Shown here: in pieces, positions 16,659 through 34,671 of the stretch
Position numbering within the stretch: the stretch's first letter is position 1
How the letters are laid out: each line of letters opens with the position of its first letter
Source of the DNA: Candidatus Woesearchaeota archaeon
Lineage (GTDB): Archaea > Nanobdellota > Nanobdellia > SCGC-AAA011-G17 > JACPIM01
NCBI GenBank assembly: GCA_964457785.1
Contig: CAYWEX010000005.1
Location: 1-58,758, forward strand
DNA: 58,758 nucleotides
Direction: 5' to 3'
Program-made: the position numbers and the translations under genes
Notes under the pieces: model-generated
The model's input: the letters and a program-made list of their open reading frames with translations, nothing else
Told to the model about the DNA's origin: nothing
The model's database searches: none

Positions 16659-16850
16659 TTAAAAGGCTTTATACAAATCAGCTAATTTAGCTAAAGTATA
16701 ACTAGAAAGCAAGATAATTCCAACTGCTGGAAATAATGTCTCGCATATACCAAAGTAATTATCAATTTGAACTTTAGTCTCTCCTGAATCTTTTTCTCTT
16801 CTAGAATACTTAAATTCTTTTTCCAAAGTTATCGCTGTTTCTAGTTTCAT
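16659..16850 (-). CDS. small hypothetical protein with C-terminal hydrophobic helix
   Basis: 63-aa ORF with TATA-like sequence upstream. Confidence 0.5.
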   Translation of the reverse strand: MKLETAITLEKEFKYSRREKDSGETKVQIDNYFGICETLFPAVGIILLSSYTLAKLADLYKAF

Positions 16851-17011
16851 AGGAAAAAAACTTTTTAGTTAATATATAAAGATTATGACAGAATTAAGAT
16901 ATTTAATTATAAAATGACACAAATAAGTCAAAATTGATATAAGCTATTTGTAATTATTTTTAAGTAGTTAAAAATAGGAAGACTTATAAATTAATATATA
17001 GCTAAAATGCT

Positions 17012-17527
17012 ATGAAATCTAAAGAAACAATTAATAATCCAATTATTCCAAATGGTGAAATGAATCTTGTTAGATCTGACGAAAGAAGAAAATTAGAAGA
17101 TATTTTTCATAGACTAGCTGAAGGCGGAAAAAAACCAATTTATGGTGAAAGAGATCATGCTAAATTTGAAGGCTGGTTTTACAGAATAGAATATGATTTT
17201 TGGAGAGAAACTCCAGATTCTCCTGAAAATGTGGAAATACTTTCTTTTGATGGAGATGAAGAATTTGGATTTAGACATGGATCTGAATTGCAAGATTCCT
17301 GGAAATTAATGTTTAATTATCATATAAGAAGAGCTTATTTCGAAGAAAGTATGAATTTCTTAAGAAGTTTAGATTTAGATATTGCAAGAACACTAATTGA
17401 TAGAGATTTATGGTCTCAAGCAGATGAAAAAAATACTGTTGTTTCAACAAGCATATCAATTCCAAATTTTAATGAGATTTATCAATTTATAAAAGAACAT
17501 ATAGATTATACAATAAAAAAACACTAA
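17012..17527 (+). CDS. orphan protein A1 (paralog of 32757-33278)
   Basis: shared KLEDIFH, YGER.HAKF.GW, IRRAYFEESM.FLR, RDLWSQADEKNTVVST, YT.KKH. Confidence 0.85.
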   Translation: MKSKETINNPIIPNGEMNLVRSDERRKLEDIFHRLAEGGKKPIYGERDHAKFEGWFYRIEYDFWRETPDSPENVEILSFDGDEEFGFRHGSELQDSWKLMFNYHIRRAYFEESMNFLRSLDLDIARTLIDRDLWSQADEKNTVVSTSISIPNFNEIYQFIKEHIDYTIKKH

Positions 17528-18067
17528 TTATAATTCATCATGCGTAACTATAGCTTCAAATTTTATTTTTTTCTTTTCTTTGTCCCAGCTATAAATTATT
17601 CTTAAATTATCATCTAGTCTAGCATGATAACGTTTTTTCCAATTTCCTTCTTTTAAAAATTCATGCAATTTTTTCTGATAAACAGGAGATTCTAAAATTC
17701 TTTTTTCTACAGTTTGAATATTTTTATCAGGATATCTTAAACAATCAGTTTTATATCTATCGCTTCTACTAACATCCTCTTTTAAATTAATGTCCAAATA
17801 ATTTTTATGAGTTTCTCTAAATTTTGAGATAAAAGGTAAGAATTCTTCTAAATATTTTTTTATTTTATTTTGATCTTTTATAACTAAAAGTTCTTTAGCC
17901 TTTTTTTCTATATTGAATTTTAAATTACTATCTTCTATTTTTTCACAAAAAAGCACAAGATCTGAAAAAGTATTATAAATAAACTGAGAGTCATTTATTT
18001 TATTTTTTGCTAATTTAATAACATTTTCAAGAATCACCAAATTTTTGTTATCGTTTTCTGAAAGCAT
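17528..18067 (-). CDS. protein B1: helical N-domain plus C-terminal RelE/ParE-like domain (paralog of 32206-32760)
   Basis: C-terminal HARLDDNLRIIYSWD..IKFEAIVTHDEL resembles the RelE fold; fold call by eye. Confidence 0.65.
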   Translation of the reverse strand: MLSENDNKNLVILENVIKLAKNKINDSQFIYNTFSDLVLFCEKIEDSNLKFNIEKKAKELLVIKDQNKIKKYLEEFLPFISKFRETHKNYLDINLKEDVSRSDRYKTDCLRYPDKNIQTVEKRILESPVYQKKLHEFLKEGNWKKRYHARLDDNLRIIYSWDKEKKKIKFEAIVTHDEL

Positions 18068-18075
18068 TTTTCAAA

Positions 18076-32131: not shown

Positions 32132-32157
32132 AAGAACCACGGTTCTTATCATCTCCT
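32132..32157. repeat. palindromic repeat module
   Basis: AAGAACC-AC-GGTTCTTATCATCTCCT. Confidence 0.8.
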
Positions 32158-32205
32158 GAAAAGTTTAATCCAAAAATACTTAAATTACTATTAGGTTTCT
32201 AATTT

Positions 32206-32760
32206 ATGCTTTCAGATAATGATAAAAAGAAATTAAAAGATATCAAAAAAGGCCTTAAATCTATTGAAGCAAATCTGGATAATTTGGGTTTTGTTTACAA
32301 GGTTGCTAGTAATTTATTTAGAATTTCAGATAACTTAGAAGATAATAATCTAAAATCAAATATAAAATGTGAATTAACAAAAATTACTCAAACACAATAT
32401 AAGGAAGAAATTCAACAAAAAGTGCTATCTATTTTTACCTTAATTTCAGAAGCAGAGAAAATGCAAAATATAAAGAGATATTTTCAAAATCCTTCTATAA
32501 AGAAAACTGAAGAATATGAAGAAGATTGTAAAAGCCATTCTAATTTAAAAAAGAATATTGAAGAATTAGAAAAAAAGATAATAAAGTCAGAAACTTATCA
32601 AGAAAATCTTCATGAAAAAATGAAACAGGGAGTAAGATGGAAAGATCATCTTCATGCACGATTAACAGGTAATTTAAGACTGATGTATATTTGGGATCCA
32701 GAAACAAAATTACTTACATTTAAAGGAATTATTACTAAAAATGAATTAGAAAAAGATTAG
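32206..32760 (+). CDS. protein B2: helical N-domain plus RelE/ParE-like C-domain
   Basis: MLSDNDKK start; HARLTGNLRLMYIWD..LTFKGIITKNEL; paralog of 17528-18067. Confidence 0.65.
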   Translation: MLSDNDKKKLKDIKKGLKSIEANLDNLGFVYKVASNLFRISDNLEDNNLKSNIKCELTKITQTQYKEEIQQKVLSIFTLISEAEKMQNIKRYFQNPSIKKTEEYEEDCKSHSNLKKNIEELEKKIIKSETYQENLHEKMKQGVRWKDHLHARLTGNLRLMYIWDPETKLLTFKGIITKNELEKD

Positions 32761-33278
32761 TGCTTTTTTACAGTATACCTTATAGATTCTCTTATAAATA
32801 GATATATTTCATTAAAACTTGGAATTTTTATGTGTGTTGAAACAACAGTATTTTTCTCATCTGCTTGAGACCACAAATCTCTTCTAATTAAAGTATGTGC
32901 GATTTGTAAATCTAGAGTTCTTAAGAAATCCATACTTTCTTCAAAGTAGGCTCTTCTTATTGTATAGTCAAGTGTTGGCTGTGATTCTTTTAACTCATTT
33001 CTAAAAGAAAATTCTTCATCCCCTTCAAAGCTAAGTATTTCAGCATCTTTTGGGTCTTCATCTGTTTCTTTCTTCCAAAAATCATATTCGACTTTATAAT
33101 GCCAGCCATCAAATTTAGCATGTTTTCTTTCACCATAAACTTCTTTCTTTCTATATCTAGCTAATTTATGAAAAATATCTTCTAATTTTAACATAGATTT
33201 TGGATCAACTTTTTCCATTCTTCTATTTAATCCATTAGAACTATTAATACTTTTGATAGGACTTAGTTTAATTTTCAT
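32757..33278 (-). CDS. orphan protein A2 (paralog of 17012-17527)
   Basis: same conserved blocks as A1; 4-bp stop overlap with B2. Confidence 0.85.
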   Translation of the reverse strand: MKIKLSPIKSINSSNGLNRRMEKVDPKSMLKLEDIFHKLARYRKKEVYGERKHAKFDGWHYKVEYDFWKKETDEDPKDAEILSFEGDEEFSFRNELKESQPTLDYTIRRAYFEESMDFLRTLDLQIAHTLIRRDLWSQADEKNTVVSTHIKIPSFNEIYLFIRESIRYTVKKH

Positions 33279-33342
33279 AGTAACCCTACCTTAACTATTA
33301 TTTATAAGCCTTTCTTTTTTAACTACTGTTAAAGCATTACAA

Positions 33343-34671
33343 TTATCTTATTCTGTATGCGTCTGGATTAGCATCACGAATTCCATTTACGGATTTATTT
33401 CCGGGTGGTCTTTTATATAATATTTTTCCCAGATCTAAATCTTTTTGTTCGAGATAGTCTATAGTTTGAGGATCATCAAATATAGAAGTTGCAGGATAAA
33501 AAGAAGTTAGAAATTGCTGTATATCACTTCTTGCACCAAAAGATTGAGTAATTTCTTGTCTATAAACATATAATAGCTGGCTTCCAGTTAAGCCTGTTTT
33601 CATTCTAGCATAAGCCCCAATAATTTCATTTCCATTAAGAGTTTCTGCATGTCCACCCAAACCACCTGTTGCATCGTCCCAATAAATTTCTATAATTCCT
33701 TGAGTCCCAATAGGAAGGCTTGTGCCTCTTGTAATTTGAATATTCGCATTTGTAAATCTATTATTAAATCTTGGAATATCATTTATTAAAATATTCTCAA
33801 CTAATCCTACTTCAGTTGATAGATCGGCGAATGGTCCATTCTTTCCTGTTGGCTCTCTATTTGCACCCATTCCAGTTCCAGTATAAATATAAATTTGAGG
33901 AACAGTTAACCATTTTTGAGTTTGACTTCCATTTCCGGGATTTCTTGCTATTTCATCAAAAAAATCCATGTTAAATGAATTTGGAATTAATTCAAAATTA
34001 ACATTAACTTCATCCCTAATAAGATTAATTAATCCAGCCCTATGTTTAATATATCCACCTGAAAGATCTTCTAAAGTAACTCTATAAAATTTATTATTAG
34101 GTATTCTTGAAAATTCATAAGTTCCGTCTGGTCTTGTTGCTGTCTGAAATGGTAATGTTGATAAGGGATTTCCGAACTGGTCTGTTTCTTCTAAAAGAAC
34201 ATTTATTCCTGATAATTTTTTATTTTCATCAAGAATATCATTTACAGTTCCTGTAATTTTATCTAATGTATTTATTACTGACAAATTTAAGTTTTTACTG
34301 GTTACATCTTTAGCATCTGAAACTTGTATTATTACTGGATGATTTCCAAAAACAGGATTATTCCATGAAATATTTTTTCCAGAATTTGTCATTCCATTTG
34401 GTCCTGAAACAGAATAAGTTAAAGAATCATTATCAAGATCAGAAGCATCAATTGAAGTAGTGTATTGTTCTCCTTCTTCTGCTGAAGGCAATGAACTTGT
34501 ATTTATTTTAGGTGGATTATTTGTTTGTTGTGGAGGACTACTTCCACCTCCATTTTTACAACCTGTTAAATAAGAAGGCAAGAATAAACTTCCAGCTGCT
34601 ACAAAACCAATTTTAAATAAATCTCTTCTAGATAAATTTTCTCTGTCTGTTATTTTTTCTAAACCTGACAT
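33343..34671 (-). CDS. putative Tat-type lipoprotein with cadherin/Ig-like, CarboxypepD_reg-like and DUF2927-like regions
   Basis: SRRDLFK, LTGC lipobox-like, DASDLDNDSLTYSV, RQEITQSFG. Confidence 0.65.
   Translation of the reverse strand: MSGLEKITDRENLSRRDLFKIGFVAAGSLFLPSYLTGCKNGGGSSPPQQTNNPPKINTSSLPSAEEGEQYTTSIDASDLDNDSLTYSVSGPNGMTNSGKNISWNNPVFGNHPVIIQVSDAKDVTSKNLNLSVINTLDKITGTVNDILDENKKLSGINVLLEETDQFGNPLSTLPFQTATRPDGTYEFSRIPNNKFYRVTLEDLSGGYIKHRAGLINLIRDEVNVNFELIPNSFNMDFFDEIARNPGNGSQTQKWLTVPQIYIYTGTGMGANREPTGKNGPFADLSTEVGLVENILINDIPRFNNRFTNANIQITRGTSLPIGTQGIIEIYWDDATGGLGGHAETLNGNEIIGAYARMKTGLTGSQLLYVYRQEITQSFGARSDIQQFLTSFYPATSIFDDPQTIDYLEQKDLDLGKILYKRPPGNKSVNGIRDANPDAYRIR

Follow-up and report, generated by a model that had tools for sequence, protein, structure and literature searches.

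Two copies of a convergent two-gene unit, pairing a gene for an orphan protein (A) with one for a RelE-like protein (B), are carried by contig CAYWEX010000005.1 (the window, 58,758 nucleotides) of a Candidatus Woesearchaeota (DPANN) genome of 802 kb (19 contigs, 86% complete, 29% GC). As proposed in an initial annotation made from the sequence alone, the unit lies at 17012-18067 and, inverted, at 32206-33278, with all four open reading frames (ORFs) found at these positions (Table 1) and no further copies when the whole 802-kb genome was checked. The stops of A1 and B1 abut in copy 1 (0 bp; TAA/TTA) and those of B2 and A2 overlap in copy 2 (-4 bp; TTAG). The proteins of the two copies have diverged substantially, A1 and A2 sharing 63% identity (E = 7e-71) and B1 and B2 33% (E = 2e-26). 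The start of B1 had been placed 9 bp after leuS; its ATG begins at the ninth base past the leuS stop, leaving 8 nt between the genes.

Conserved convergent pairing of A and B

The above-chance feature of the unit is the conserved pairing of A with B, not the spacing of 0 or -4 bp. In a crude gene set for this genome, abutting or overlapping stops are present in 56 of 141 convergent pairs (40%), comprising 25 pairs at exactly -4, nine at 0, and 22 with larger overlaps, and the median gap of convergent pairs is 4 bp. On this genome-wide count the 4-bp overlap was rejected as a special coupling device, and the suggestion that the two genes are coupled in antisense through their overlapping 3' ends finds no specific support, as such overlap is the norm across the genome.

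The linkage count covers 21 non-redundant modules, drawn from Woesearchaeota-type genomes and metagenomes (at least 12 of them); these are the loci with readable neighbourhoods, with most of the 109 representatives of the B family (see below) lying outside the count; the organisms named in the homologue records are Candidatus Woesearchaeota. An ORF of 120–190 aa is convergent with the B gene in 20 of the 21 modules, at gaps between -9 and +18 bp (the 18-bp gap belonging to module L007), and these modules represent several families of the class and sit in unrelated flanking contexts. Seventeen of the 20 facing ORFs could be linked to A, whether by hidden Markov model (HMM) iteration (L053, L033, L034, and L025), phmmer chains (L032 and L051), or hhalign and blastp (L029 at 90%, L055 at 94%, and L016b via L029), and the divergent partner in L029 also bears the A-type promoter element described below. 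For the partners in L047, L054, and L058, homology to A was not demonstrable by these methods. The usual separation of A and B homologues in other genomes had been set as an outcome that would refute the pairing; the genes proved to be tail-to-tail at every locus read, with the exception of the partner in genome G250.

A stand-alone 106-aa RelE domain in genome G423 (L053) also faces a convergent A homologue (E = 3.6e-6), so that A accompanies the RelE domain and not the N-terminal domain of B. Canonical co-directional RelBE pairs occur in the same order (L027), and the convergent layout is thus specific to the A/B family.

Table 1. Coordinates of the A/B cassettes and associated features in the window
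Feature	Position	Strand	Description
A1	17012-17527	+	171 aa; orphan alpha/beta protein, putative antitoxin or partner
B1	17528-18067	-	179 aa; two-domain RelE-family protein, putative toxin
B1 N-terminal domain, residues 1-90	17798-18067	-	Predicted four-helix bundle; AlphaFold2 helices 4-22, 27-43, 47-62, 66-86
B1 C-terminal domain, residues 91-179	17531-17797	-	RelE/YafQ-like fold; DSSP, Foldseek, profiles
A1 promoter region	16950-16991	+	Element (ttgtaat...AGTAGTTAAAAATAGGAAGA) and TATA box CTTATAAAT (16983-16991) starting 29 nt before ATG
T7 run, putative B1 terminator	17515-17521	-	6 nt past B1 stop, within last codons of A1
T7 run, putative A1 terminator	17566-17572	+	First T run of at least 5, 39 nt past A1 stop, in B1 3' end
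Cassette 1 insert	16933-18070		1,138 bp between leuS and conserved 63-aa gene upstream of thermosome gene
Direct-repeat copy, A-side border of cassette 1	16928-16932		TTTGA on minus strand; from comparison with empty sites
Direct-repeat copy, B-side border of cassette 1	18071-18075		TTTGA on minus strand, directly past leuS stop
B2	32206-32760	+	184 aa; B1 paralogue (33% identity), class-2 N-domain
A2	32757-33278	-	173 aa; A1 paralogue (63% identity)
B2 promoter	32158-32185	+	GAAAAGTTTAATCCAAAAATACTTAAAT, TATA-like box 27 nt before ATG; conserved in L004, G133, and L016 type-2 B genes
A2 promoter region	33300-33340	-	TATA box CTTATAAAT 33308-33300, starting 30 nt before ATG; homologous to A1 region

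A RelE-type domain in B and an orphan fold in A

The B family, as collected by an exhaustive HMMER search, comprises 109 representatives at 50% clustering and takes three forms: two-domain proteins of ~175–200 aa, proteins of 230–300 aa with other helical N-termini, and stand-alone domains of ~95 aa. An AlphaFold2 (AF2) model of B, built from nine homologues (predicted local distance difference test (pLDDT) score, 85), consists of a four-helix bundle (residues 4–86) followed by a beta-alpha-alpha-beta-beta-beta arrangement (residues 99–175). Against the PDB, the top Foldseek matches of this model were HP0894, YafQ, RelE1/2, YoeB, HigB, and the archaeal aRelE, with E-values from 5e-4, a probability of 1.00 and target template modelling (TM) scores of 0.6–0.67; nearly all of the top 25 are RelE-superfamily toxins (target TM, 0.5–0.67), and the matches include the CARF-RelE protein Cami1 (PDB 8phj). 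A result without the RelE fold had been set beforehand as refuting the assignment, and the fold is present; AF2, Foldseek, and sequence profiles concur that B carries a RelE/ParE-like C-terminal domain after a helical N-terminal domain, as the initial annotation had it.

The sequence profiles point in the same direction at lower scores. A profile of 42 C-terminal domains matched YafQ (E = 0.08) and YoeB (E = 0.34) best amongst PDB sequences, in both cases along the full domain, and in Pfam the same 42 domains matched YafQ_toxin (13 domains; best E = 2e-5, under the gathering score), ParE (seven), YoeB (six), and HigB (four), as well as YhaV. B1 also matched the PHROGs family phrog_1213, 'RelE-like toxin' (E = 8e-4). 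Full-length B1 and B2 had no match in Pfam or NCBIfam, and full-length B returned spurious helical matches only from the PDB sequences. Taken with the fold, the C-terminal ~88 residues of B belong to the RelE/ParE superfamily, with YafQ and YoeB as nearest members, and B would be the toxin of the pair.

The C-terminal motif that had been described for B, HARLDDNLRIIYSWD, was found in B1. The catalytic residues of YafQ are H50, H63, D67, and H87, and those of YoeB are E46, R65, and H83. Conserved positions in the B1 domain are H135, H148-A149-R150, N154, R156, Y159, and H176; of these, H135 and H148-A149 do not vary amongst the 42 C-terminal domains, N154, R156, and Y159 scarcely vary there, and R150 is nearly invariant in a 16-sequence alignment of B. 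In a weak HMM alignment to YafQ, R150 falls opposite H63, N154 opposite D67, and the T-[H/K]176 of the C-terminus opposite H87; H135, in an LHE motif, is two positions off H50. The residues of B at the catalytic positions of YafQ offer plausible chemistry without being identical, and B is a divergent member of the YafQ/RelE type whose active site could plausibly be that of an RNase, joined to an accessory helical domain. Because a His/Arg/Asn/His(Lys) set occupies these positions, B is predicted to cleave mRNA as a ribosome-dependent endonuclease. The N-terminal domain is an accessory module, some relatives lacking it and others having a different N-terminus, and regulation, sensing, and oligomerisation are candidate roles for it. 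The protein as a whole is soluble and basic (~180 aa; pI about 9).

Relatives of A are very few, with 11 clusters amongst 5.8 billion proteins, and the members of the family are 120–190 aa in length and mostly acidic (pI 5–6). The AF2 model of A (pLDDT, 80; predicted TM score, 0.76; from a shallow alignment) has a disordered N-terminus, a helix, an antiparallel sheet of six to seven strands, and C-terminal helices. The initial annotation had recognised no motif in A, and family-profile and fold searches agree that it is an orphan: Pfam, NCBIfam, PADLOC, PHROGs, and PDB sequence searches gave no match, and Foldseek against the PDB and BFVD found nothing under an E-value of 0.03. The folds of p32/gC1qBP, TK0353, and the RNase H3 N-terminal domain appeared as weak matches and were rejected (TM ~0.2). 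The broadened A family lacks any invariant polar residue, which is more in keeping with a binding protein than with an enzyme, and A may act as a neutralising partner that binds the RelE domain of B.

Promoters, mobility, and decay of the cassettes

The regions upstream of A1 and A2 have ~60 nt in common, ending in AGAAAG-N-CTTATAAAT, and that of A2 starts directly past the stop codon of a 442-aa He_PIG gene. The A-type element, preceded by the palindrome ACTATATAGT, is also present upstream of A genes in L004, G133, and L029 and is inverted in L016; the palindrome could be a candidate operator. In type-2 B genes the common element is GAAAAGTTTTATCAAAAAATACTTAAAT, placed ~27 nt ahead of the ATG. 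Based on the spacing of 27–30 nt between TATA box and ATG, the mRNAs are predicted to be leaderless. Both genes had been expected to have independent promoters, and this stands for A1, A2, and B2, with their conserved BRE (B recognition element)/TATA sequences, and fails for B1, which lies too close to leuS and is probably expressed from a weak TATA-like sequence within the end of leuS or by leuS read-through. Apart from B1, A and B would be transcribed convergently, each from a BRE/TATA promoter of its own and as a leaderless mRNA. Runs of T5–T7 occur 2–6 nt past three of the four stops and further downstream for A1, such that transcripts may stop just within the 3' end of the opposite gene, and the 3' transcript overlaps are predicted to be short (~15–60 nt).

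Cassette 1 is a recent insertion. In the congeners G133 and G134 the empty site reads leuS-TAA-TTTGAC, followed by the conserved 63-aa gene and the thermosome gene, while the insert in the window contains the A1 promoter, A1, and B1 and leaves the C-terminus of LeuS (PAIYLE and stop) unaltered. The TTTGA repeat at the two borders may have arisen by target duplication, from microhomology, or by chance. Cassette 1 contains no recombinase gene, its 1,138 bp having room for A1 and B1 only, and a transposon is not claimed for it; by eye, the ends show a weak inverted-repeat match (8 of 11). For copy 2 no empty site was found in relatives, where the local gene order differs and the flanking 442-aa He_PIG protein is multi-copy.

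The distribution of B is patchy: seven of the 240 genomes scanned in the order have it, as do 12 of the 401 in the phylum (~3%), and it is absent from one congener. Scans of the viral contigs of IMG/VR for A and B returned no relatives, and PADLOC had no match for B either. Where modules have decayed, they have done so asymmetrically. B is truncated at its 5' end or reduced to a remnant beside an intact partner in L016 (second pair), L034, and L035, and solo A genes are present in L064 (G394; 1486-1947; hhalign, 99%) and L066 (G370; 1498-1932; hhalign, 96%), with neither a B gene nor a remnant beside them. An intact B with a decayed A was not seen amongst the modules read. Loss of B with retention of A is what one would expect of a B that does harm in the absence of A.

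The two genes appear to have had separate histories. The N-terminal domains of B fall into two classes, with identities of 22–31% between and 45–75% within them, and A retains 58–66% identity across both. As a percentage of identical residues, synonymous differences amount to 23% for A1/A2 and 37% for B1/B2. As judged from these comparisons, discordant histories of A and of the parts of B would fit module shuffling or gene conversion.

Several observations were made on the neighbourhoods of the modules. In L058 (G439; 504-1482), two tandem 158-aa paralogues (phmmer E = 4e-10) lie opposite a single 237-aa B-family gene. Two cassettes, one of B with a 144-aa partner and one of B with A, lie 4.1 kb apart on a metagenome contig (L008; 1081-6629), and the reference genome G133 (G133:C2), a close relative, gave only one B match at the corresponding place, which may be a presence/absence polymorphism of the cassette. 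A DUF3368 (PIN-like) and UPF0175 pair is found 1.5 kb from the A/B cassette of GCA_053532875.1 (L004; 7642-8501), forming a small toxin-antitoxin islet. In L034 (1-398), a MazF/PemK-like ORF and a ribbon-helix-helix (RHH)-like ORF take the place of the 5' part of the truncated B, apparently a case of partial displacement of one toxin-antitoxin module by another. L026 (G167; 1037-1737) holds a canonical RelE-like gene of 91 aa that shares 13 bp with the 3' end of a convergent VapC (PIN) gene; no ORF of at least 60 aa is present in the ~150 bp upstream of the RelE-like gene (1738-1889), and the next upstream ORF is 244 aa.

Lipoprotein-like He_PIG/CarboxypepD_reg proteins of ~440 aa repeatedly adjoin A/B cassettes (window, 33343-34671 on the minus strand; L008, 2190-3497; L009, 163-1536; L029, 1512-2885; L016, 4877-5257), which suggests that the 3' end of the He_PIG gene is an insertion hotspot; the order past the He_PIG stop codon is A-first in the window and B-first in L029. 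In the relatives L040 and L041 the He_PIG gene is co-directional behind a giant Cys-rich 'CCQ..GF' protein, while in the window both converge on cassette 2. A perfect hairpin (AGAACC-AC-GGTTCT; 32133-32146) separates B2 from the gene for a Cys-rich secreted protein of 1,499 aa; it may serve as a terminator or represent a repeat element at the border of cassette 2. Next to cassette 1, the 63-aa ORF MKLETAITLEKEFKYSRREKDSGETK... (16659-16850, minus strand) is kept between leuS and the thermosome gene in G133 and G134; it is probably a genuine small gene, preceded by a TATA-like sequence of its own.

Interpretation and comparison with known systems

Collectively, the A/B unit is best read as a mobile, convergent, toxin-antitoxin-like cassette, in which B would be a YafQ/RelE-type mRNA interferase and A its antidote, a protein of a new family, a reading to which a probability of roughly 0.6 is assigned. 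Antitoxins are usually the fast-evolving members of such pairs, and here the opposite is seen, the two copies differing less in A (63% identity) than in B (33%). It is one of several points that tell against an antidote role for A or a toxin role for B. In a Mantel test of eight modules (r ~0), the pairwise divergence of A showed no correlation with that of the whole of B or of either of its domains, and there is thus no signal of the co-evolution expected of a tightly matched pair. In Pfam, NCBIfam, PDB-profile, and Foldseek searches A is unlike any known antitoxin and has no DNA-binding domain of the RHH, helix-turn-helix (HTH), AbrB, or Phd/YefM type, and A2, at a pI of 8.6, is basic. The Pfam and PDB sequence matches of B are all under curated thresholds, and the B gene of the G250 module (L056) faces an unrelated 321-aa convergent neighbour at +70 bp.

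Some of these points would sit well with a self-regulated B, in which the N-terminal four-helix domain acts as a cis-inhibitor or sensor, in the manner of fused toxin-antitoxin or sensor-effector proteins, and A is the trigger sensor, regulator, or co-effector of an abortive-infection defence. Sensor-fused RelE proteins are known, with Cami1 amongst the structural matches, the family is modular and varies at the N-terminus (forms of 95, 180, and 230–300 aa), A is the more conserved protein and does not co-vary with B, and a patchy, mobile cassette resembles defence genes. The stand-alone RelE domain nevertheless keeps its convergent A in the absence of any N-terminal domain, so that the toxin apparently does not occur without A, and the preferential loss of B is what would be expected of an antidote; with no PADLOC match in addition, this scheme is considered unlikely. 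A non-toxic pair, for which the RelE fold was recruited as a ribosome- or RNA-associated factor with A as its physiological partner and the cassette behaviour is incidental, draws on the sub-threshold scores of all toxin-family matches, the absence of antitoxin features from A, and the position of B1 just behind the essential leuS, with which it may be co-transcribed. A housekeeping factor should, however, be widespread, whereas B is confined to ~3% of genomes and missing from a congener, and the recent insertion of copy 1, the repeated decay of B, and the conservation of residues aligned with the YafQ catalytic positions make such a role decidedly improbable.

Control at the level of RNA, in the style of type I or type IIb systems, where antisense pairing or RNA-polymerase collision sets the A:B ratio and the A protein is secondary, could account for stops that abut or overlap in nearly all modules and has an antisense precedent at a RelE gene, relBE2-asrelE2 of Mycobacterium tuberculosis (PMC9325379). 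The spacing is nonetheless a property of the genome as a whole, an 18-bp gap is tolerated in L007, and the T runs predict only short transcript overlaps; moreover, A is a conserved 170-aa protein of a broad family under purifying selection, with 23% of identical residues differing in codon, and this form of control is very improbable. An artefact of chance or compaction, with unrelated genes made adjacent in a dense genome, has in its favour only that this genome is very compact and that convergent overlaps are common in it; it is refuted by a pairing that is kept in 20 of the 21 modules, with differing flanks and in several families of the class, and by insertion borders that enclose exactly A, B, and the A promoter, and is hardly credible.

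A more far-reaching and still tentative proposal is that these cassettes form a distinct organisational class of protein-protein toxin-antitoxin system. Such a class would be obligately convergent, with the toxin:antidote ratio set by the relative strength of two leaderless promoters and not by operon autoregulation, and the antidote, with an alpha/beta fold not seen before, would recognise the RelE domain. The systems would travel as recombinase-free mini-cassettes that land past the stops of housekeeping genes (here leuS), with host transcription driving the toxin. The A/B cassette is also a natural case in which to study the setting of toxin:antidote ratios in the absence of operon autoregulation, and A is a candidate for a new inhibitor fold for RelE-type RNases. 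Cassette 1, cleanly bounded at 1.1 kb, is usable for studying the movement of recombinase-free cassettes in ultra-small archaeal genomes.

By definition, and in the searches made for them, type II toxin-antitoxin systems are co-directional operons whose antitoxin is small and binds DNA. As in type II systems, the genes for the toxin and the putative antitoxin are adjacent in 20 of 21 modules, while in place of a co-directional bicistronic operon the A/B genes are convergent with separate promoters, and no autoregulating DNA-binding antitoxin domain was found in A. A convergent family with a large non-DNA-binding partner and an additional N-terminal domain on the toxin would escape such searches. 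Many archaeal genomes appear to be defence-poor (PMC12988326); the A/B family suggests that DPANN archaea are richer in toxin-antitoxin modules than is apparent. In full-text literature searches on tail-to-tail or convergent type II systems and on DPANN toxin-antitoxin systems, the A/B family was not described.

Compared with DinJ-YafQ, YefM-YoeB, and RelBE (PDB 4mmg, 2a6q, and 3g5o) and the archaeal aRelE-aRelB (1wmi), the A/B cassette shares the fold and approximate size of the toxin domain and, on a weak alignment, conserved His, Arg, and Asn residues at the YafQ catalytic positions, together with a basic toxin with a mostly acidic partner, and a patchy, mobile two-gene constitution with decay of the toxin. 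It differs in its convergent genes with separate promoters, as opposed to one autoregulated operon, in a 120–190-aa alpha/beta partner without RHH, Phd/YefM, HTH, or AbrB domains, in the N-terminal four-helix or longer helical domain added to most B proteins, and in the position of B under the threshold of every curated family model.

The layout also resembles that of some type I systems. The txpA/RatA and bsrG/SR4 pairs of Bacillus subtilis are tail-to-tail with overlapping 3' ends and combine an RNA antitoxin with a small hydrophobic peptide toxin. The A/B cassette has neither an antisense RNA antitoxin nor a small hydrophobic peptide toxin, A and B both being conserved soluble proteins and B reaching ~180 aa. 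Only one published parallel was found for a RelE locus with convergent transcription, relBE2-asrelE2 of M. tuberculosis, a type IIb system in which a convergent non-coding antisense RNA, processed by RNase III, is added to a normal relBE operon (PMC9325379). A RelE-family toxin gene under convergent transcription from the opposite strand is common to both, while the convergent gene of the A/B cassette encodes a conserved protein partner and the co-directional antitoxin is absent. Finally, B has in common with CARF-RelE Cami1 a C-terminal RelE fold behind an N-terminal accessory domain, and is set apart from it by a four-helix bundle that has no similarity to CARF, by the absence of a CRISPR context, and by a partner gene dedicated to it.

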